From an uncultured Acidobacteriota bacterium (GTDB lineage: Bacteria > Acidobacteriota > Vicinamibacteria > Fen-336), in contig CAZNNH010000003.1 of assembly GCA_964574335.1 (NCBI GenBank), positions 9,038 to 73,037 of the forward strand: a stretch of 64,000 nt of DNA, written 5' to 3'. Shown in pieces: positions 56,980 to 62,815 of this stretch. Under the pieces are notes generated by a model. The model was not told where the DNA came from and did not search any database. It saw nothing but the letters and a program-made list of their open reading frames with translations. Position 1 is the stretch's first letter. Each line of letters begins with the position of its first letter. The position numbers and the translations under genes were made by a program.

Positions 56980-57368
56980 TCAGGCGATGTGGGCGCCCTG
57001 GGTGTTGCCGTTGCTGTTGCCGGACGGGCGGCGGAAGACGCTGACGTGCCCGTCCTCGTCCAACCAGCGGAGCTGGACGTCGTTCGGGATGTCGCTCCAT
57101 ACCGGGTAGCGCCCCACCCCGTTCCAGGCCGGGCCTTCGGCCCAGAGCATGCACCGTGGAGGCGCTGGATCGGCGTGTTGCCGATCACGTAGCGGCCGAA
57201 TCGGGGATCCAGCGCCACGATGTCGGGATCCGGGTAGCGCACGGGTTCGCCGCCGGAGAAGTCGCGGGACTGCGCCCGCGCCCAGCTCGCCCCGGCAGCG
57301 GCGGCGACCGCGGCGCCGATGAAGCCGCGACGACCGAGCCCGGCCGGGCGGGTCGTATTGCAGGTCAT
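56980..57368 (-). pseudogene. Remnant of an SMP-30/gluconolactonase/LRE-like (SGL) gene: the N-terminal third only, with a frameshift
   Basis: The frame from the ATG at 57368 gives a Tat-type signal (RRGFIGAAVAAAAGA) and 'RYPDPDIVALDPRFGRYVIGNTPIQRLHG', then shifts by +1 near 57165. 'WAEGPAWNGVGRYPVWSDIPNDVQLRWLDEDGHVSVFRRPSGNSNGNTQGAHIA' continues in the next frame to a stop at 56980. About 170 C-terminal residues are absent. Confidence 0.5.
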
Positions 57369-57489: not shown

Positions 57490-57898
57490 TCAGTAGCCGC
57501 GCTGCTTGTCGACGACGTTGCGGAGCGGCTGGCCGCGCACGAAGCGCTCGATGTTCTCGCGGAACAGGCCGATCCGGCGCTCGCTGAACCCGTCGGACCG
57601 CCCGGCGATGTGTGGGGTGAGGATCACGTCGTCGCGCTTCCACAGCGCGTGGTCGGGGGGGAGCGGCTCGGGCTCGGTGACGTCCAGGCCGGCCCCGGCC
57701 AGCTTCCCCGACTCGAGGGCCGCCAGCAGGGCGAGGGCGTGGTCGGCGATCTCGGGCCCCTGGATGATCTTGGCGTTGGTCAGCACGATCTCCGACTCGC
57801 GCAGCTCGGGCGCCGCCAGGTAGCCCTCGACGCCGGAGCTCCCCACCTGCACCCAGTGCACCTTCCCGCCCTCGCGGAGGAGCGCCGCCACGCCCTAC
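57490..57898 (-). pseudogene. Remnant of a D-isomer-specific 2-hydroxyacid dehydrogenase gene, with an internal deletion and an upstream in-frame stop
   Basis: The 133-aa ORF joins an N-terminal substrate-domain segment (KVHWVQVGSSGVEGYL...IVLTNAKIIQGPEIADHALALLAAL) directly to the C-terminal catalytic segment (GAGLDVTEPEPLPPDHALWKRDDVILTPHIAG). The NAD-binding Rossmann core of about 150 aa is missing. In-frame homology continues upstream (GGGKADDLLPRVSACDALVGFSV) but is broken by a TAG at 57896-57898 and a further TGA. Confidence 0.45.
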
Positions 57899-58011
57899 AC
57901 GGAGAAGCCCACCAGGGCGTCGCACGCCGAAACCCGCGGGAGCAGATCGTCGGCCTTGCCACCGCCCAGAACGCGGTATCATCGCCGCGCCGGTCGCCAT
58001 CCACGGTTCGC

Positions 58012-59451
58012 ATGCCCGACACGCCCAAGCCGACGGCCGCAGACGAGGCCCGGACGCTCCCCCCCGACGAGGGCACGGCTTCCGCGCCAGCACCACGGCA
58101 GGTGCGGTGCTCGACCGACTCGTCCCTGCAGGAGACCCTCCACATCGAGCTGCCGTCCCAAGCGGCGGCGCAAAGGCCCGAAGCGCCCGAGGCCCCCGGG
58201 ACCCAGCGGGAGCGCTACCAGGAACTGGGCGAGATCGGCCGTGGCGGCATGGGCACCGTCCACCGTACCCTCGACAGCCTGCTGCTGCGCGAGATCGCGA
58301 TGAAGACCATCGAGCGTCCGTTGGCGGACGCAGCCAGCGTGGTCCGCTTCGTCGAGGAGGCCCAGATCACGGGGCAGCTCGACCACCCCAACATCGTCCC
58401 GGTCTACGACTTCGGCGCCCAACCCAACGGCCAGGCCTTCTTCACCATGAAGCTGGTCAGCGGGCGCACCCTCGGCGAGCTGATCACCGATCTCCACGAT
58501 CAGGGCGTGCCGAGCGACGGCCTCGAGCGGCTGCTGCGAATGATCCTCAAGGTCTGCGAGGCGGTCTCCTTCGCGCACAGCCGGGGGGTCGTCCACCGCG
58601 ACCTGAAGCCGGCCAACATCATGATCGGGAGCCACGGCCAGGTCTACGTGATGGACTGGGGGCTGGGCCTGCTCCTCGGCGCCAGCCCGCGCGCCGAGCC
58701 GAGCGGAGGGCCGCCGGCTGACTCGATCCGGACCTCGAGCGCCCGTCGCTCGGGCCCCTCCCTGGCCGGCACGGTCGGCTACATGGCGCCGGAGCAGGCC
58801 CTGGGGCGCCTGGCCGAGATCTCTCCCCGCACCGACGTCTTCGCGATCGGGGCCATCCTCTACGAGGTGCTGACCGGGCGGCCCCCGTACCAGGCCGACG
58901 ACATCCACCAGGCGCTGATGCTGGCGCGATCGGGTCAGATCGTGCCGCCCGACCAGGCGGCCGAGGGCCGGCAGCTCCCCCCCGGTCTGTGCGAGATCAC
59001 GATGCGGGCACTGCAGCCCGCCCAGCAGGACCGCTATTCGTCGGTCGACCACCTGGGTGCCGACCTGGAGGGCTTCCTGCGTGGCGGCGGCTGGTTCGCC
59101 ACCCGACGTTTCCGCTCCGGCGAGGTGGTGATCGAGGAGGGCGGCCCGGGGGACGCCGCCTACGTGGTCGTCGAGGGTCGCCTGGAGGTGTTCCAGCAGC
59201 GCGCCGAGGGACGCAGCGCGATCCGGACCTTGGGGCCGGGAGACGTGTTCGGCGAGGCCGCGCTGTTGAGCTCCAAGCCCCGCACCGCCAGCGTGGCCGC
59301 CCTCGACGACGTCACCGTCAAGGTGATCACGGCCGAGGCGTTCGAGCGCGAGCTGGGCCGCAGCTCTTGGCTGTCGGCCCTGGTCAAGCAGCTCACCGCG
59401 CGTTTCCTGGAGCTCGAGGGCCGGCTGGCCGCGACCGAAGCCTCCCGGTAG
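58012..59451 (+). CDS. Ser/Thr protein kinase fused to a C-terminal cyclic-nucleotide-binding (CAP effector) domain
   Basis: Kinase subdomains: 'LGEIGRGGMGTVHR' (Gly-loop), 'AMK', 'HRDLKPANIM' (catalytic loop), 'DWGLG' (DFG-like) and 'GTVGYMAPE'. The C-terminal cNMP-binding domain is 'FRSGEVVIEEGGPGDAAYVVVEGRLEVF...GPGDVFGEAALLSSKPRTASVAALDDV' with the FGE and RTA motifs. Confidence 0.85.
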   Translation: MPDTPKPTAADEARTLPPDEGTASAPAPRQVRCSTDSSLQETLHIELPSQAAAQRPEAPEAPGTQRERYQELGEIGRGGMGTVHRTLDSLLLREIAMKTIERPLADAASVVRFVEEAQITGQLDHPNIVPVYDFGAQPNGQAFFTMKLVSGRTLGELITDLHDQGVPSDGLERLLRMILKVCEAVSFAHSRGVVHRDLKPANIMIGSHGQVYVMDWGLGLLLGASPRAEPSGGPPADSIRTSSARRSGPSLAGTVGYMAPEQALGRLAEISPRTDVFAIGAILYEVLTGRPPYQADDIHQALMLARSGQIVPPDQAAEGRQLPPGLCEITMRALQPAQQDRYSSVDHLGADLEGFLRGGGWFATRRFRSGEVVIEEGGPGDAAYVVVEGRLEVFQQRAEGRSAIRTLGPGDVFGEAALLSSKPRTASVAALDDVTVKVITAEAFERELGRSSWLSALVKQLTARFLELEGRLAATEASR

Positions 59452-59457
59452 CGCCCG

Positions 59458-60891
59458 TCAGTAGCCGTGCTCGAGGCGGCGGCAGGCGGGCTGGTGGCCC
59501 GCCTGGCAGGCCTTCTGGTAGAGAGCCTTGACCCTCTCCGGGTCCCGCTGCATCGCGGTGCTGGTCTCGATCAACTGCCCGAGCGCGTAGCACCCCTCCG
59601 CGACGCCCAGGTCGCAGGCCTTGCCGTAGAGCTCCGCCGCCCGGCCCACGTCCCTGACCACCGAGCTCCCCTTCTCGAGCCGCCCGGCCATCCGGTAGCA
59701 GGCCAAAGCCGCTCCCTGGTCGCACGCCTTCTGGTAGAGGGTCATGGACTTCGGCATGTCTCGGGCCACCCCCACCGCGGTCTCGTACATGTAGGCGAGC
59801 TGGGCGCAGGCTTCCACCGCACCCGCCGCGCACGACTGGTCGAAGAGCTTGGCCGAGCGGGCCAGGTCCTTGGGCAGGTACTTGCCCTCCAGGTACAACC
59901 GCGCCAGGGCCAGGCAGCCCTGCGCGTCGTCGGCCGAGCAAGCCTTGCGCTCCAGGTTGGCGCCCTTGGCCAGGTCCTGGGTCGAGCGGGGCCGCGCCAG
60001 GAGCTGTCGTGCCAGCTCGTGGCAGGCCCGGGCCACCTCCCCGTCGCAGGCACGGGTGAGCAGCTCGGTGGACCTCTCGCGGTTGCGGGTGGTCCCCACC
60101 CCGTCGCGAAGCATCAGGCCCAGCCGGAAGCAGGAGCGCCATTCCTGCGCCTCGCACGCCTTCGAGTGGAGCGTGAGGGCGTGAGCCAGGTCCTTCGGGA
60201 CGCCGTCCCCCTGCTCGTAGGCCACGCCGAGGTGATAGCACCCGTCCGTGACCTGTGCCTGGCAGACCCGGTCCGCCAGCTCCGCAGCCCGCTTCCGATC
60301 CCCCGCCGGCCGCCCCGGCGTCCTCAGCATCTCGGCGAGCTCGGCACACGAGGCCATGTGGCCACCCTCGCAGCCCTGCCCGAAGAGCCGCTCGGCCCGA
60401 GCCAGGTCCCGAGGGAACGGGGCTCCGTCCCGGTAGAGCTCGCCGAGGGCGCCGCAGCCGCCGGCGGTCCCGGCCTCGCACCCCTTCACGAACAGCTCCG
60501 CCGCCTGCCCGAGGTTCAGGGGGACGCCCTCTCCGGCGCGGTAGGCGGCACCGAGCCGCACGCATCCCTCGCCGCTGCCCGCCGTGCAGGCCCGCCCCAG
60601 GTACTCGAGGGCGCTGTCGACGCTGACCTTGACGCCCTCGCCCTTCCGGTGCATGCCGGCCAGCTCGAGGCAGGACTGGGCGTCGCGCAGGTTGCAGCCC
60701 TTCTCGAAGTACTTGGCCGCCTTCCCCGCATCCTGAGCCACGCCGGCTCCGGTCCGGTACATCCCGGCGGCACGGTAGCAGTCGGCGGCGCTCCCCTTGT
60801 CGCAGCTCTTCTTGGTGGTCTCGAAGTCCGCGCCGCCGGCGGTGCCGGCCAGCAGCAAGGACGCCCCGATCAAAGCCGCCGCGTGTCGCAT
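59458..60891 (-). CDS. Secreted Sel1-like (SLR) repeat protein, Cys-rich
   Basis: Signal peptide followed by about 12 tandem 36-aa Sel1 repeats. Each carries a conserved Cys pair ('C..AA.LYR.G.GV..D...A..LY.KAC', the Hcp/HcpA-like pattern). Confidence 0.8.
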   Translation of the reverse strand: MRHAAALIGASLLLAGTAGGADFETTKKSCDKGSAADCYRAAGMYRTGAGVAQDAGKAAKYFEKGCNLRDAQSCLELAGMHRKGEGVKVSVDSALEYLGRACTAGSGEGCVRLGAAYRAGEGVPLNLGQAAELFVKGCEAGTAGGCGALGELYRDGAPFPRDLARAERLFGQGCEGGHMASCAELAEMLRTPGRPAGDRKRAAELADRVCQAQVTDGCYHLGVAYEQGDGVPKDLAHALTLHSKACEAQEWRSCFRLGLMLRDGVGTTRNRERSTELLTRACDGEVARACHELARQLLARPRSTQDLAKGANLERKACSADDAQGCLALARLYLEGKYLPKDLARSAKLFDQSCAAGAVEACAQLAYMYETAVGVARDMPKSMTLYQKACDQGAALACYRMAGRLEKGSSVVRDVGRAAELYGKACDLGVAEGCYALGQLIETSTAMQRDPERVKALYQKACQAGHQPACRRLEHGY

Positions 60892-60946: not shown

Positions 60947-62815
60947 TCAGCTCTCTTGCCGAGGCAGTGCCCGAAGGTGGCTCTCGATCTCCGGTGAGAT
61001 CGAGGTGAAGCGGACCACCAGCACCCGGCCGTCCTCGCCCCGGACCTCCGTCACCTTGGCATACAGGTCGCCCGCGACCGGCGCTCCATCCTCACCCTTC
61101 AGCTCCAGCTTCAGGTTGCTGAGGGGGGGCAGCGAGCTCTCCGAGAGGATCTCGGCACCGATCTCCGAGAGCTTCGAAAGCCGCGCCGAGAACCACTCGT
61201 CGCCGACCTGCTTGCCCTCCAGGATCCAGAAGCCCATCTCCGCCGGGCGGCTCAGCGCCTGCAGATGGTCCTGCCGCTCGGGCAGGAACACATCGTACGA
61301 GCCGCCGATGCCCTTCAGGTCGTAGACGGTGACCGGCTCGCGGGCCCCCTTCGCCTTCACCGACAGCCTGTCGCCGACCTGCACCGCGTCGCCCGTCCGC
61401 TGCCGCGTCGCCTCGGAGATCAGGATCTGCCCGCCCACCGTGTAGGACTCGATGCGGCCGGTGAGGTTGACCGGCGGGCCCACGATCCCGTACTTGGTGC
61501 GCCGCTGGGACCCGATATTGCCCACCACCACCTCGCCGGTGTGGATGGCGATCCCCATCTCGATGCGCGGCAGCCCCTCGCTCTCGTTGCGGGCGTTGAC
61601 CTCCGCCATGGCGAGCTGCATCTCCACCGCGCACGCTACCGCGCGCCGGGCGTCGTCCTCACGGGAGAAGGGAGCCCCGAAGATGGTCAGGATCGCGTCG
61701 CCGATGAACTCGTCGATGGTCCCCTGGTGACGCATGATGATGTCGGTCATGTCCCCGAGGTAGCGGTTGAGCATCCGGACCACCTGCTCCGGGCCCAGCC
61801 GCTCCGACACCGAGGTGAAGGCCCGCAGGTCCGACATCATGATGGTGACGGTCTTCTTCTCCCCGCCCAGCTTCAGCCCCTCCGGCGACTCCAGCAGGCT
61901 CTCCACCACCTCGTCGCTGAGGTAGCGACCGAAGATGCTCCGGATGAATCTGTTGCGAACCTCGAGGTCCTCGGCCAGGCGCTGGATCTCGTCCTTCTGC
62001 CGCTTGAGCACCAACTGGGTCTGGACCCGGGCCATCACCACCGGGAAGTCCAGGGGCTTGGTGACGTAGTCGTTGGCGCCGAGCTTCAGGGCCTCGACGA
62101 TGTCCTCGCTCTGGTCTTTGGCGGTGGCCATGATCACCGGCAGGTCGGCCATGGCGTAGGTCCGGCGCAGCGTCTCCAGCACCTCCAGGCCGCTCATCCC
62201 GGGCATCATCACGTCGAGCAGCACCAGGTCGTAGCGGCTGCCGCTGATCTTCAGCAGCGCCTGCGCCCCGTCTTCTGCTACCTCCACCTCGAAGCCGCGC
62301 TGGGTCAGCCGGCGCGAGAGCATGTCCCGGTTCATCTCGTTGTCATCGACGACCAGGAGCGGCCCGCCCTCCCCCGCCGTGGCGGGCGTCCGCCGGGCCA
62401 GGTCCAGCTCCCCCGACGGGGCGTCCGGGCTCGCCGGCGGGGCGGCGGCCGGCTCCGAGCCGGCGGCGGGCGGCGGGGCCTCCGGGACGGCGGCGGGCGT
62501 CGGAGCAGCGGCCGGTGACGCGGCCTCGGCGGCGGGCGTCGGAGACGCGCCGGTTCCGGCCTCTGCACCCTGCGCCGCAGCAGCCTGGGCGGCGGCCGCC
62601 GGAGACAGGTACTTGTCGATCAGCTCGAGCTGCCGTCGCGCCGCCTGCTGGATCTTCTTCAGGTCCGAGGCGAGGTCCTCCCGACCCTCCTCATCGGCGA
62701 TCTCCTCGAGCAGCTCGCTGTAGCCGATGATCTGGTTGACCGGCGTGCGCAGGTCGTGGCGCGCCTGCGAGAACGGGTCGGCGGGCTTTCTGCTCTTGGC
62801 GCTCTCGTCGCTCAT
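60947..62815 (-). CDS. Multidomain signalling protein: HisKA-like phosphoacceptor (DHp) domain, Ala/Pro-rich linker, REC receiver, class III adenylate/guanylate cyclase catalytic domain, and a C-terminal domain of about 130 aa
   Basis: H-box 'FSQARHDLRTPVNQIIGYSELL' with no downstream HATPase_c. REC domain 'LLVVDDNEMNRDML...DLVLLDVMMPGMSG...YVTKP'. Cyclase domain 'VTIMMSDLRAFTSV...GTIDEFIGDAILTIFGAP...HTGEVVVGNIGS...VGPPVNLTGR'. The start is taken at MSDESAKS (62815). Confidence 0.8.
   Translation of the reverse strand: MSDESAKSRKPADPFSQARHDLRTPVNQIIGYSELLEEIADEEGREDLASDLKKIQQAARRQLELIDKYLSPAAAAQAAAAQGAEAGTGASPTPAAEAASPAAAPTPAAVPEAPPPAAGSEPAAAPPASPDAPSGELDLARRTPATAGEGGPLLVVDDNEMNRDMLSRRLTQRGFEVEVAEDGAQALLKISGSRYDLVLLDVMMPGMSGLEVLETLRRTYAMADLPVIMATAKDQSEDIVEALKLGANDYVTKPLDFPVVMARVQTQLVLKRQKDEIQRLAEDLEVRNRFIRSIFGRYLSDEVVESLLESPEGLKLGGEKKTVTIMMSDLRAFTSVSERLGPEQVVRMLNRYLGDMTDIIMRHQGTIDEFIGDAILTIFGAPFSREDDARRAVACAVEMQLAMAEVNARNESEGLPRIEMGIAIHTGEVVVGNIGSQRRTKYGIVGPPVNLTGRIESYTVGGQILISEATRQRTGDAVQVGDRLSVKAKGAREPVTVYDLKGIGGSYDVFLPERQDHLQALSRPAEMGFWILEGKQVGDEWFSARLSKLSEIGAEILSESSLPPLSNLKLELKGEDGAPVAGDLYAKVTEVRGEDGRVLVVRFTSISPEIESHLRALPRQES

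Follow-up and report, generated by a model that had tools for sequence, protein, structure and literature searches.

A DHp hairpin without an ATPase domain, a receiver and a predicted Cya2-type guanylate cyclase combined in one protein family

The cyclase gene on the minus strand of the DNA analysed here (a stretch of 64,000 nucleotides, referred to as the window) raises the question of what a helical hairpin of the histidine kinase type may do in a protein that carries a receiver and a class III cyclase, but no ATPase domain. The anatomy described in an earlier note on this DNA, i.e., an H-box with DHp helices, a linker rich in Ala, Pro and Gly, a REC domain and a class III cyclase, is right as judged from Pfam, an AF2 model and the amino acid composition. 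The same applies to its claim that HATPase_c is missing from the protein, since Pfam yields zero matches even at E <= 1; the DHp is not followed by HATPase_c, and the protein does not contain a complete histidine kinase core.

Gene organization and conservation of the architecture

The features of the cyclase gene and its neighbours are compiled in Table 1. As indicated by Pfam and the homologues, the domains follow each other in the order DHp, linker, REC, signalling helix with cyclase-transducer element (CTE), Cya2-type cyclase and PilZ-like domain, and the protein is predicted to be cytoplasmic. More than 100 homologues of 52-89 % identity keep this architecture, and the N-terminal feature is therefore no chance match. 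Several tblastn matches over residues 8-290 proved to consist of the HisKA domain of a hybrid kinase and a separate REC and do not represent CA-less proteins. The family of CA-less DHp-REC-cyclase proteins comprises thousands of metagenomic members, and relatives with a taxonomic label come chiefly from Acidobacteriota (Vicinamibacteria, Thermoanaerobaculia). The family represents a new version of known protein types, and the combination of a CA-less DHp with a cyclase is a common design among uncultured soil bacteria. In the source annotations of the databases, the homologues are named 'adenylate cyclase'.

Table 1. Features of the cyclase gene and of the adjoining genes, with their positions in the window.
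Feature	Residues or length	Position	Strand	Basis and remarks
Cyclase gene (whole CDS)	622 aa + stop	60947..62815	minus	ATG start; ORF list, translation, Pfam
HisKA/DHp helical hairpin	16-85	62561..62770	minus	Pfam HisKA, AF2, conservation
Disordered Ala/Pro/Gly-rich tether	86-149	62369..62560	minus	pLDDT < 50, composition
Receiver (REC)	152-268	62012..62362	minus	Pfam Response_reg, invariant residues
Signalling helix and cyclase-transducer element	269-318	61862..62011	minus	AF2, FGRY motif
Cya2-type class III cyclase catalytic domain	319-504	61304..61861	minus	Predicted guanylate cyclase; PDB 2W01
PilZ-fold beta-barrel and C-terminal helix	505-622	60950..61303	minus	Pfam, AF2, Foldseek
MBL-fold hydrolase, candidate cNMP phosphodiesterase	322 aa	62812..63780	minus	PF12706 (Pfam); ATGA overlap
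Sel1-repeat protein	477 aa	59458..60891	minus	Downstream, 55 bp past the cyclase gene; Pfam Sel1, E = 7e-53
Ser/Thr protein kinase with C-terminal cNMP-binding domain	478 aa	58012..59451	plus	Convergent; Pfam Pkinase and cNMP_binding

The ATG of the cyclase gene overlaps the stop codon of the upstream MBL gene in the sequence ATGA, and this translationally coupled hydrolase, which was overlooked by the earlier note, belongs to the cyclase unit. An MBL gene lies directly upstream of the cyclase gene at the loci L001, L002, L003/4, L086 and L088, and is fused to the N-terminus of the cyclase protein in P0008-P0012, P0018, L087 and P0225. Where the two are fused, the MBL domain directly precedes the DHp, i.e., it takes the usual position of the sensor in kinases. 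The MBL protein matches PF12706 with 50 bits vs. 27 (Pfam), and the metal motifs HxHxDH, His, Asp and His are complete, with D68, H98, H100, D102, H103, H182, D213 and H250 being invariant. The same Pfam family contains Rv1339, a cAMP/cGMP phosphodiesterase. RNase Z-like, PhnP-like and other hydrolases are further members. To compare the protein with the known cNMP phosphodiesterases, the PDB was queried with phmmer and profiles, and NCBIfam and Pfam (relaxed) were scanned as well. Neither a PDEase_II or YhfI match nor a specific link to Rv1339 emerged; the matches obtained were generic only (MBL, RNase Z, PhnP, arylsulfatase), the best one in the PDB being an arylsulfatase (E = 6e-6).

Catalytic domain and C-terminal extension

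The Guanylate_cyc match covers residues 320-500 (Pfam, E = 1.6e-27), and the catalytic domain aligns without gaps to that of Cya2 from Synechocystis sp. PCC 6803 (PDB 2W01) with approximately 60 % identity (E = 1e-72). Based on the table of catalytic residues of Cya2 given in a review (PMC6005667), D329, R331, E369 and D373 correspond to D448, R450, E488 and D492 of Cya2, and G443, N450, R454 and K489 to G562, N569, R573 and K608. The metal-binding Asp pair (D329/D373), the transition-state residues (N450/R454) and the phosphate-binding residues (R331/K489) are all present, together with a Glu-Gly pair as base-specifying residues (E369/G443); out of 120 homologues, 107 carry E-G. GTP is the preferred substrate of Cya2, and the exchange E488K turns this enzyme into an adenylate cyclase. 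Because all eight catalytic residues of Cya2 are shared, including the Glu-Gly pair, the question of A or G specificity, which the earlier note had wanted to see checked at these residues, can be narrowed to a likely preference for G, and cGMP is the probable product; it counts against this assignment that the two-residue specificity rules are not obeyed by some bacterial class III cyclases.

Behind the catalytic domain, the earlier note had recognized an extra domain of about 130 aa and left it unassigned. Such a domain indeed exists, but it comprises 118 aa and can be assigned as PilZ-like. PilZ (PF07238) matches residues 537-617 with 25.3 bits, compared to a gathering score of 22.5 (Pfam), and the domain is modelled by AF2 with a pLDDT of 91. 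Since sequence and profile searches of this domain against the PDB gave chance matches only, a comparison of folds was needed: nearly all of the top approximately 35 Foldseek matches in the PDB are PilZ domains, most of them with probabilities of 0.98-1.0, and single-domain PilZ structures match with TM values of about 0.5-0.6. A motif analysis of 134 representatives did not reveal a conserved RxxxR, and at the positions of [D/N]xSxxG, the D/N is replaced by K or R in 86 of them, while the Ser is present in 110 and the Gly in 58. The family has an invariant set of its own, consisting of EGK, LS, SNLK, LYAKV and RFTS. Canonical binding of c-di-GMP by the C-terminal domain was considered and rejected because of the missing RxxxR and D/NxSxxG motifs.

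All of the 10 full-length proteins scanned carry the domain C-terminal to the cyclase domain, and the same PilZ-like domain trails Cya2-like cyclases with CHASE2, PAS, GAF, HAMP or REC heads; the barrel regularly accompanies cyclases of the Cya2 type. Cya2 itself possesses a C-terminal extension of 118 aa, which stimulates its activity; a description from 2018 calls this extension structurally uncharacterised, but necessary for high activity in optogenetic constructs. As judged from the Cya2-like CHASE2 proteins, this extension appears to be homologous to the PilZ-like domain. Fusions of PilZ domains with class III cyclases go unmentioned in one PilZ survey.

The N-terminal hairpin, its receiver and the genomic context

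The HisKA profile (PF00512) matches residues 16-71 with 41.8 bits (gathering score 26.9, E = 1e-10; Pfam), and two helices (residues 16-42 and 46-70/85) are predicted by AF2 with pLDDT > 90, forming a helical hairpin. The sequence of the H-box is ARHDLRTPVNQIIGYSELL, as given in the earlier note, with R19-H20-D21-L-R-T24-P25 as its core, in agreement with the pattern H-[E/D]-x-x-[T/N]-P, and the codon for His20 at 62756-62758. Alignment A1 shows no variation at R19, H20, D21, T24 and P25, and among the best 120 homologues, all 117 that have the N-terminal region keep the Arg-His of the H-box, with Thr24 being invariant alongside His20. Asp21 is kept in most homologues; approximately 10 carry Q, H, K or A at this position. 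In a subfamily with tandem DHp domains, the His is gone from the second hairpin. The variable residue after the His and the His-less second hairpin suggest that the role of the domain may be partly structural. The earlier note had also considered that the N-terminus might be a mere coiled coil or that the His might not be conserved; the HisKA match, the AF2 hairpin and the conserved residues, including the His of the homologues, lead to the rejection of a mere coiled coil.

The N-terminal domain belongs to HisKA rather than to HPt by sequence, and no match to the Hpt profile (PF01627) was obtained with the cyclase protein at E <= 1, but it may work in an HPt-like manner. The proposal of the earlier note that the H-box may act as a phosphoryl-exchange module is supported in part, namely by the invariant His20 and Thr24, the similarity of the DHp to those of hybrid kinases and the context of neighbouring genes. 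Hybrid kinases have DHp domains of the same subtype and of closely similar sequence. The DHp also resembles that of a PilS-like kinase whose gene lies directly upstream of the gene for a REC-cyclase orthologue lacking a DHp (L010), suggesting that it was derived from a cognate kinase.

A CA-like domain is absent after the hairpin, and the respective region is of low complexity and disordered according to the AF2 model and the composition, with Ala, Pro and Gly making up 68 % of residues 71-150 (80 aa). The spacing between H-box and REC amounts to 87-172 aa in the family, compared to approximately 245-255 aa in most related hybrid histidine kinases (HKs); by this sequence comparison, the tether occupies the position of the CA/HATPase domain of the hybrid kinases. 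The Response_reg match (PF00072) covers residues 154-264 (Pfam, E = 3.5e-31), and the complete Asp-Asp/Asp/Thr/Lys quintet of the receiver (D157, D158, D201, T231, K253) is invariant. The phospho-accepting Asp, whose conservation the earlier note had left to be checked, is Asp201 (codon 62213-62215). Residues 257-295 are predicted by AF2 to form an unbroken helix, and FGRYLS is invariant in the alignment of the homologues; a CTE motif -FGRY- has been described for Cya2 constructs (PMC5995499).

A view on the neighbourhoods of related genes adds to this picture. The scan of contigs at 80 loci employed peptide patterns derived from the REC domain, which mostly detected unrelated REC proteins, and only L006-L011, L017, L074 and L076 were informative. 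Three of the four examined relatives without a nearby MBL gene adjoin a hybrid HK and/or a conserved single receiver: at L009, the cyclase gene is followed by a hybrid HK (HAMP-HisKA-HATPase-REC-REC), overlapping by 4 bp, and then by a single REC; L008 shows a convergent hybrid HK and a single REC, and L005 a single REC directly upstream of the cyclase gene. The single RECs are orthologous to each other, and their alpha1 helix has the sequence NEMNRDMLSRRL in common with the REC of the cyclase. Moreover, L011 and L017 encode Ser/Thr kinases to which the same CA-less HisKA-REC head is attached, and the copy at L011 adjoins a hybrid HK. None of the neighbours scanned showed an HPt domain, and together with the hybrid HKs and single RECs, this is the setting in which a step of histidine phosphotransfer would be expected. 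At the MBL-bearing loci, including the window, no such kinase or single REC is located nearby; no further ORF of the 64-kb window matches kinase DHp+CA queries, and a kinase partner was not found there. The relay partners of the MBL-type loci, if any, are encoded elsewhere.

On the output side, genes for cNMP-binding proteins adjoin the cyclase gene in the window and at L086, L005 and L010. The Ser/Thr kinase with cNMP-binding domain encoded in the window is a candidate reader of the cyclic nucleotide as judged from its domains; its start was fixed via the 90 % identity to its orthologue at L086, where the synteny is kept. L086 represents an 86 % relative, which was also used for the context past the end of the window. 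The Sel1-repeat protein has a hydrophobic, signal-peptide-like N-terminus and is conserved only in this close relative.

The best reading of these features is that of a built-in DHp station for the protein's own receiver, serving in phosphotransfer and/or as a phosphatase. With a probability of roughly 0.55, the protein is regarded as a phospho-controlled guanylate cyclase of the Cya2 type, in which the CA-less DHp acts as phosphoryl-exchange partner of its own REC and is fed by a separate kinase. The DHp would form a dimeric four-helix bundle and exchange phosphoryl groups with the receiver: His20 would be phosphorylated by a kinase with a gene of its own, most likely via the receiver of a hybrid kinase in a ChpT/Spo0B-like manner, and pass the phosphoryl group on to Asp201, and probably the DHp would also take it back or catalyse its hydrolysis. 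The phosphotransfer, its direction and the source of the phosphate are inferred. Phosphorylation of the receiver may then shift the register of the helical stalk, and it is proposed that this change switches the cyclase dimer. Within the cyclase cassette, the PilZ-like domain would support the activity, in the way reported for the extension of Cya2. The MBL hydrolase, translated together with the cyclase, may serve as the matching cGMP phosphodiesterase, or else as a regulator docked to the DHp, and the cGMP signal would be read by the neighbouring Ser/Thr kinase with its cNMP-binding domain.

Isolated DHp of EnvZ keeps its phosphatase activity, and it is conceivable, if unlikely, that the hairpin studied here is a phosphatase only. 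REC would then be phosphorylated by acetyl phosphate or an unrelated kinase, and the DHp would just accelerate the dephosphorylation of Asp201 without any His~P, its state being determined by the MBL domain, which takes the place normally held by a sensor. This would agree with the location of MBL directly in front of the DHp in the fusion proteins, with the lack of nearby kinases at the MBL-type loci, with the variation of the acidic H+1 residue, which is needed for kinase activity, in approximately 10 homologues, and with the invariance of Thr24 (H+4), which is reported to be needed for the phosphatase activity of HisKA proteins (preprint 10.64898/2026.02.27.708494). However, the neighbourhoods with hybrid kinases and single RECs, but no HPt found, suit a relay better. 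A strictly invariant His also argues against this alternative, because the phosphatase activity of well-studied HisKA kinases does not need it. Quite unlikely is a split or heterodimeric kinase, in which a complete kinase either contributes its DHp to a mixed dimer or reaches over with its CA domain, so that His20 would be phosphorylated in trans directly from ATP before Asp201 receives the phosphoryl group from it. Precedents exist in the form of split CheA proteins with phosphorylation in trans and of heterodimers of DHp domains (e.g., RetS-GacS), the DHp is very near in sequence to those of the hybrid kinases adjoining family members, and Asp21, needed for ATP-dependent phosphorylation of the His, is kept in most homologues; but DHp dimerisation is usually strongly homodimer-specific, and no gene for a CA-only protein or a kinase is conserved beside the cyclase gene.

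A purely structural hairpin, i.e., a leftover of a kinase that now acts as a clamp for cyclase dimerisation or as a dock for MBL without any phosphoryl chemistry, appears decidedly unlikely. Class III cyclases need to be dimeric for activity and the catalytic dimer of Cya2 is weak (KD 8 uM), the second hairpin of the tandem-DHp subfamily lacks the His, and the long disordered tether means that there is no rigid coupling. On the other hand, a pure clamp would not demand the invariance of His20, Thr24 and Pro25 over a wide divergence, and it would make a poor dimeriser with 25-100 aa of disordered tether and an entire REC between it and the cyclase. It is also very unlikely that the protein is an adenylate cyclase, as its homologues are annotated, with the PilZ-like domain being a true receptor which links c-di-GMP to cAMP. 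The PilZ score above the gathering score and the fold matches to c-di-GMP-bound PilZ structures would agree with this view, in addition to the source annotations; it is opposed by the identity of the Glu-Gly pair and the other catalytic residues to GTP-specific Cya2, where a Lys in place of the Glu creates an adenylate cyclase, as well as by the absence of RxxxR and the frequent Lys/Arg instead of D/N in the second c-di-GMP motif (see above).

If the reading as a phospho-controlled guanylate cyclase is true, the family would form a large additional group of proteins that likely produce cGMP and are controlled by a phosphorelay; to our knowledge, only few cases of bacterial cGMP signalling are known (e.g., Cya2, Rhodospirillum centenum, Xanthomonas XC_0250). 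The family offers a natural test of what a DHp without ATPase is capable of, be it phosphotransfer, phosphatase activity or a scaffold function. In addition, a fold, PilZ-like with missing c-di-GMP motifs, is assigned to the extension typical of Cya2-type cyclases, and the dedicated MBL-fold partner may be the missing cGMP phosphodiesterase. A farther-reaching and quite improbable view would regard MBL, DHp, REC, cyclase and PilZ-like domain as a self-contained machine for cGMP turnover, consisting of two co-translated chains here and of a single chain in other lineages. The DHp would then be the mechanical hub and more than a stop of a relay, and the phosphorylation state of REC would switch reciprocally between synthesis (cyclase on) and hydrolysis (MBL on). 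Such a machine would be analogous to the bifunctional GGDEF-EAL enzymes, but would act on cGMP and employ an ATPase-less helix bundle derived from a kinase.

Relation to known systems

The closest similarity is seen with Cya2, which shares approximately 60 % identity in the catalytic domain, the same eight catalytic residues, the FGRY transducer element and a C-terminal extension of approximately 118 aa. Cya2 sits in the membrane and carries its CHASE2 sensor outside the cell, whereas the protein described here has a cytoplasmic DHp-REC head. In the cyanobacterial CyaC-type enzymes and ACR of Dictyostelium, a His-to-Asp module and a class III cyclase likewise occur in one polypeptide, and the cyclase is controlled by the receiver. 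They possess a full, autophosphorylating kinase core with HATPase, while the protein here lacks HATPase and is predicted to make cGMP.

ChpT of Caulobacter is, according to PMC3433190, a dimeric histidine phosphotransferase of the DHp type which shuttles phosphate between receivers without ATP. Like ChpT and Spo0B of Bacillus, the present protein contains a DHp-like hairpin with a putatively phosphorylatable His, and the gene neighbourhoods fit the logic of a shuttle. In contrast, ChpT and Spo0B are free-standing proteins which keep a degenerate CA-like domain, whereas a disordered tether is found here in its place and the DHp shares one chain with its presumed target; moreover, the DHp belongs to Pfam HisKA instead of the ChpT or Spo0B families. 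The upstream MBL protein shares PF12706 and the full binuclear metal motifs with the atypical class II MBL phosphodiesterases of the Rv1339 type, but the searches did not tie its sequence specifically to Rv1339 or YhfI. The C-terminal domain exhibits the same beta-barrel plus C-terminal helix as the canonical PilZ receptors (Alg44, MapZ, YcgR, PilZ of BcsA), but carries its own invariant set in place of RxxxR and D/NxSxxG. Finally, HisKA proteins without HATPase_c are recognised as incomplete histidine kinases (iHKs) among the categories of P2CS (preprint 10.64898/2026.02.27.708494). This category serves for bookkeeping and has no mechanism assigned to it, whereas the family described here is distinguished by a defined, conserved architecture and a gene partner.

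Domain architecture and conservation

The ATG start codon of the cyclase gene overlaps, in the sequence ATGA, with the stop of the gene before it; a GTG start 16 codons further upstream is possible, but homologues begin at the ATG. The domains recognized in its product agree with the earlier note, which had described an N-terminal H-box with DHp-like helices, an Ala/Pro/Gly-rich linker (these residues make up 68 % of positions 71-150), a REC domain and a class III cyclase. The claimed absence of HATPase_c likewise held in a Pfam search, which gave no match in the 622-aa protein even at E <= 1, while the C-terminal domain, which that note had left unassigned, can now be assigned as PilZ-like. 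AlphaFold2 predicts helices at residues 16-42 and 46-70/85 (pLDDT > 90) and an uninterrupted helix at 257-295; it also models the REC domain and the C-terminal beta domain with confidence, and disorder is predicted for residues 86-149.

Features of the cyclase protein (residues), the window and related contigs (nucleotides)
Feature	Position	Strand	Evidence or counterpart
Cyclase ORF	window 62815 to 60947	minus	622 aa
HisKA	residues 16-71	minus	Pfam, 41.8 bits (gathering score 26.9)
Response_reg	residues 154-264	minus	Pfam
Guanylate_cyc	residues 320-500	minus	Pfam
PilZ	residues 537-617	minus	Pfam, 25.3 bits (gathering score 22.5)
Active site	D329		Cya2 D448
Active site	R331		Cya2 R450
Active site	E369		Cya2 E488
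Active site	D373		Cya2 D492
Active site	G443		Cya2 G562
Active site	N450		Cya2 N569
Active site	R454		Cya2 R573
Active site	K489		Cya2 K608
Sel1-repeat gene	window 59458-60891	minus	L086
Ser/Thr kinase gene	window 58012-59451	plus	L086
Dehydrogenase remnant	window 57493-57960	minus	L086
SMP-30/gluconolactonase-like gene	window 57001-57368	minus	L086
HisKA-tether-REC-Ser/Thr kinase	L011 7598-9985		Polyangiaceae MAG
HisKA-tether-REC-Ser/Thr kinase	L017 108-2519		Deltaproteobacteria MAG
MBL and distant cyclase genes	L074 3605-7383		alphaproteobacterial MAG
MBL and distant cyclase genes	L076 4628-6867		alphaproteobacterial MAG
ECF sigma/zf-HC2/DUF4097 block	L001 3837-6767		
ECF sigma/zf-HC2/DUF4097 block	L002 2568-4716		
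ECF sigma/zf-HC2/DUF4097 block	L088 3955-6055		

Searching 5.8 billion proteins gave thousands of matches. The best 120 share 52-89 % identity, and nearly all of them combine HisKA, REC and cyclase domains in a length of 560-690 aa. In a 21-sequence alignment, R19, H20, D21, T24 and P25 of the H-box are invariant, as are D157, D158, D201, T231 and K253 of the receiver, D201 being the phospho-acceptor presupposed by the His-to-Asp relay of the earlier note. All 117 of the best 120 homologues that possess the N-terminal region keep Arg-His plus Thr at H+4; the position after the His is mostly Asp, about ten homologues having E, Q, H, K or A there. One subfamily carries two tandem hairpins, the second without the His.

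In most of the related hybrid kinases found on genome contigs, about 245-255 aa separate the H-box from the first REC domain, with HATPase_c in between, whereas the distance in the cyclase family is 87-172 aa (median 111; down to about 80 aa in locus L009), bridged by a tether of variable length and composition. The DHp of the cyclase (RHDLRTPVNQIIGYSELL...DLKKIQQAARRQLELID) belongs to the same subtype as that of the hybrid kinases (SHELRTPLNAIIGYSEML...DLRKIQSAGKHLLSLIN). In a Burkholderiaceae MAG (L010), the gene for an orthologous REC-cyclase without DHp immediately follows that for a complete, PilS-like HisKA-HATPase kinase. This kinase has the same type of DHp, and the arrangement suggests that the hairpin derives from a cognate kinase which lost its CA domain and became fused to its response regulator.

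Predicted product and C-terminal domain

The catalytic domain aligns without gaps to Synechocystis Cya2 (PDB 2W01; E = 1e-72, about 60 % identity), with a constant numbering offset of 119. The metal- and substrate-binding residues, which the earlier note had named as predictors of cAMP or cGMP synthesis, all correspond to those of Cya2 (PMC6005667), whose strong GTP preference is set by a Glu-Gly pair and which becomes an adenylate cyclase by the E488K exchange. Because the pair is shared by our protein (and by 107 of the 120 homologues), cGMP is the predicted product, as far as the imperfect base-specifying rules for bacterial cyclases allow.

Residues 505-622 in isolation are predicted to form a beta-barrel with a terminal helix (pLDDT 91), and a Foldseek search of the PDB returned PilZ domains for nearly all of its top ~35 matches, among them those of Alg44, MapZ, PA4608, BcsA, YcgR and MotI (probability mostly 0.98-1.0; TM about 0.5-0.6 for single-domain structures). 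The canonical c-di-GMP motifs are absent: among 134 diverse representatives RxxxR is not conserved, and 86 have Lys or Arg in place of the D/N of D/NxSxxG. A set of residues particular to this family is invariant, namely L511, P512, G534, K535, S550, N567, Y585, K587, F603 and T604. Among 1.84 billion representative proteins searched, 456 have the domain, which lies at most 10 residues from the C-terminus in 105 of 134 full-coverage matches and follows a cyclase domain in all ten full-length proteins scanned. These carry CHASE2, PAS, Ser/Thr-kinase-AAA-GAF, HAMP, REC or MBL-HisKA-REC heads, and in the cyclase domain they share 54-61 % identity with Cya2. Of 34 sequences scored, 33 have Glu at the base-specifying position. 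Judging by CHASE2 proteins that resemble Cya2 (766-772 aa), the 118-aa C-terminal extension of Cya2, described as structurally uncharacterized and strongly lowering activity when removed, is very probably such a PilZ-like barrel.

Gene neighbourhoods

The neighbourhoods of the cyclase family fall into two recurrent kinds. In the window, its close relative L086, L001 (Vicinamibacteria), L002, L003/L004 and L088, a PF12706 MBL-fold hydrolase gene lies directly upstream of the cyclase gene, often with a 4-bp overlap, and in P0008-P0012, P0018, L087 and P0225 the MBL domain is fused N-terminally, about 25-35 aa before the H-box. The coinciding longest-contig sizes of many MBL and cyclase homologues (e.g., 21743, 15254, 60776 and 25465 bp) suggest that these also share one contig. 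In L074 and L076, a distant MBL homologue immediately precedes a class III cyclase that is likewise more distant, which suggests that the pairing reaches past the family. All metal-binding motifs of the MBL partner are invariant; the upstream protein matches only generic MBL models (best PDB match an arylsulfatase, E = 6e-6), and profile and PDB searches gave no match to class II phosphodiesterases. PF12706 includes the cAMP/cGMP phosphodiesterase Rv1339; a cGMP phosphodiesterase is the simplest inference for the MBL partner, as a candidate only. In three related contigs, but not in the window, genes for an ECF sigma factor, a zf-HC2 anti-sigma factor and DUF4097 protein(s) directly precede the MBL-cyclase pair.

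Five loci (L005-L009) show no MBL gene in the available sequence, which in L007 begins with the cyclase gene and so lacks the upstream side. Two-component partners occur in three of the four whose neighbours were inspected: in L009 the cyclase gene is followed, with a 4-bp overlap, by a hybrid kinase gene (HAMP-HisKA-HATPase-REC-REC) and this by a single-REC gene; L008 has a single REC and, in convergent orientation, a hybrid kinase (GAF-HisKA-HATPase-REC-REC); and in L005 a single REC is encoded 18 bp upstream of the cyclase. L006 has neither MBL gene nor such partners nearby. The single RECs are mutually orthologous, and their alpha1 helix NEMNRDMLSRRL is identical to that of the cyclase REC. 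This helix is the main DHp-docking element of receivers. No HPt domain was found among the neighbours scanned at family loci, and DHp+CA queries matched no further ORF of the 64-kb window. The CA-less HisKA-tether-REC head is also fused to Ser/Thr protein kinases in L011, directly after a hybrid histidine kinase gene, and in L017, and therefore behaves as a portable input module.

Proteins with cNMP-binding domains adjoin the cyclase gene in three settings: the window and L086, L005 (two proteins), and L010 (a patatin-like protein, read from the ORF sequence rather than Pfam). That of the window, encoded convergently to the cyclase operon, is a Ser/Thr protein kinase carrying a cNMP-binding domain at its C-terminus (the phosphate-binding cassette reads FGEAALLSSKPRTASV) and is a candidate cGMP effector; its start follows from comparison with L086, the long ORF from 57319 being over-extended. 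A Sel1-repeat gene 55 bp downstream of the cyclase, whose product has a hydrophobic N-terminus like a signal peptide, is conserved in L086 only. Further along, a D-2-hydroxyacid dehydrogenase remnant aligns with the intact 343-aa L086 orthologue only over residues 55-128 and 270-343, indicating that about 140 aa have been lost internally and that the N-terminus is missing, with an in-frame stop near 57894; it is likely a pseudogene or assembly artefact. An SMP-30/gluconolactonase-like gene (with twin-arginine signal) changes from frame -3 to -2 at about 57151 relative to its L086 orthologue, which is a frameshift or sequencing error.

Possible mechanism and relation to known systems

The domain set, the intact His and Asp phospho-acceptors, the missing ATPase, the Cya2-type active site and the conserved MBL partner are established, and the favoured reading is a relay. 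A separate kinase, for which the hybrid kinases are the best candidates, would feed the DHp dimer, which would exchange phosphoryl groups with its own REC domain in a ChpT- or Spo0B-like manner and probably also act as phosphatase; the phosphorylated REC would then act, by way of the helical stalk and transducer element, on the cyclase dimer, whose activity the PilZ-like barrel would support. Alternatively, the DHp may act solely as a phosphatase, or be phosphorylated in trans by the CA domain of a complete kinase, and the sequence data do not separate these two readings from the relay. The invariance of His20 speaks against a purely structural clamp.

HisKA proteins without HATPase are a recognized bookkeeping class, the 'incomplete HKs' (10.64898/2026.02.27.708494), and DHp-type phosphotransferases, REC-regulated cyclases and Cya2 itself are already known. 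Literature searches found no experimental work on the DHp-REC-cyclase family, and cyclase fusions go unmentioned in a survey of PilZ-related domains. [quoted passage not shown]
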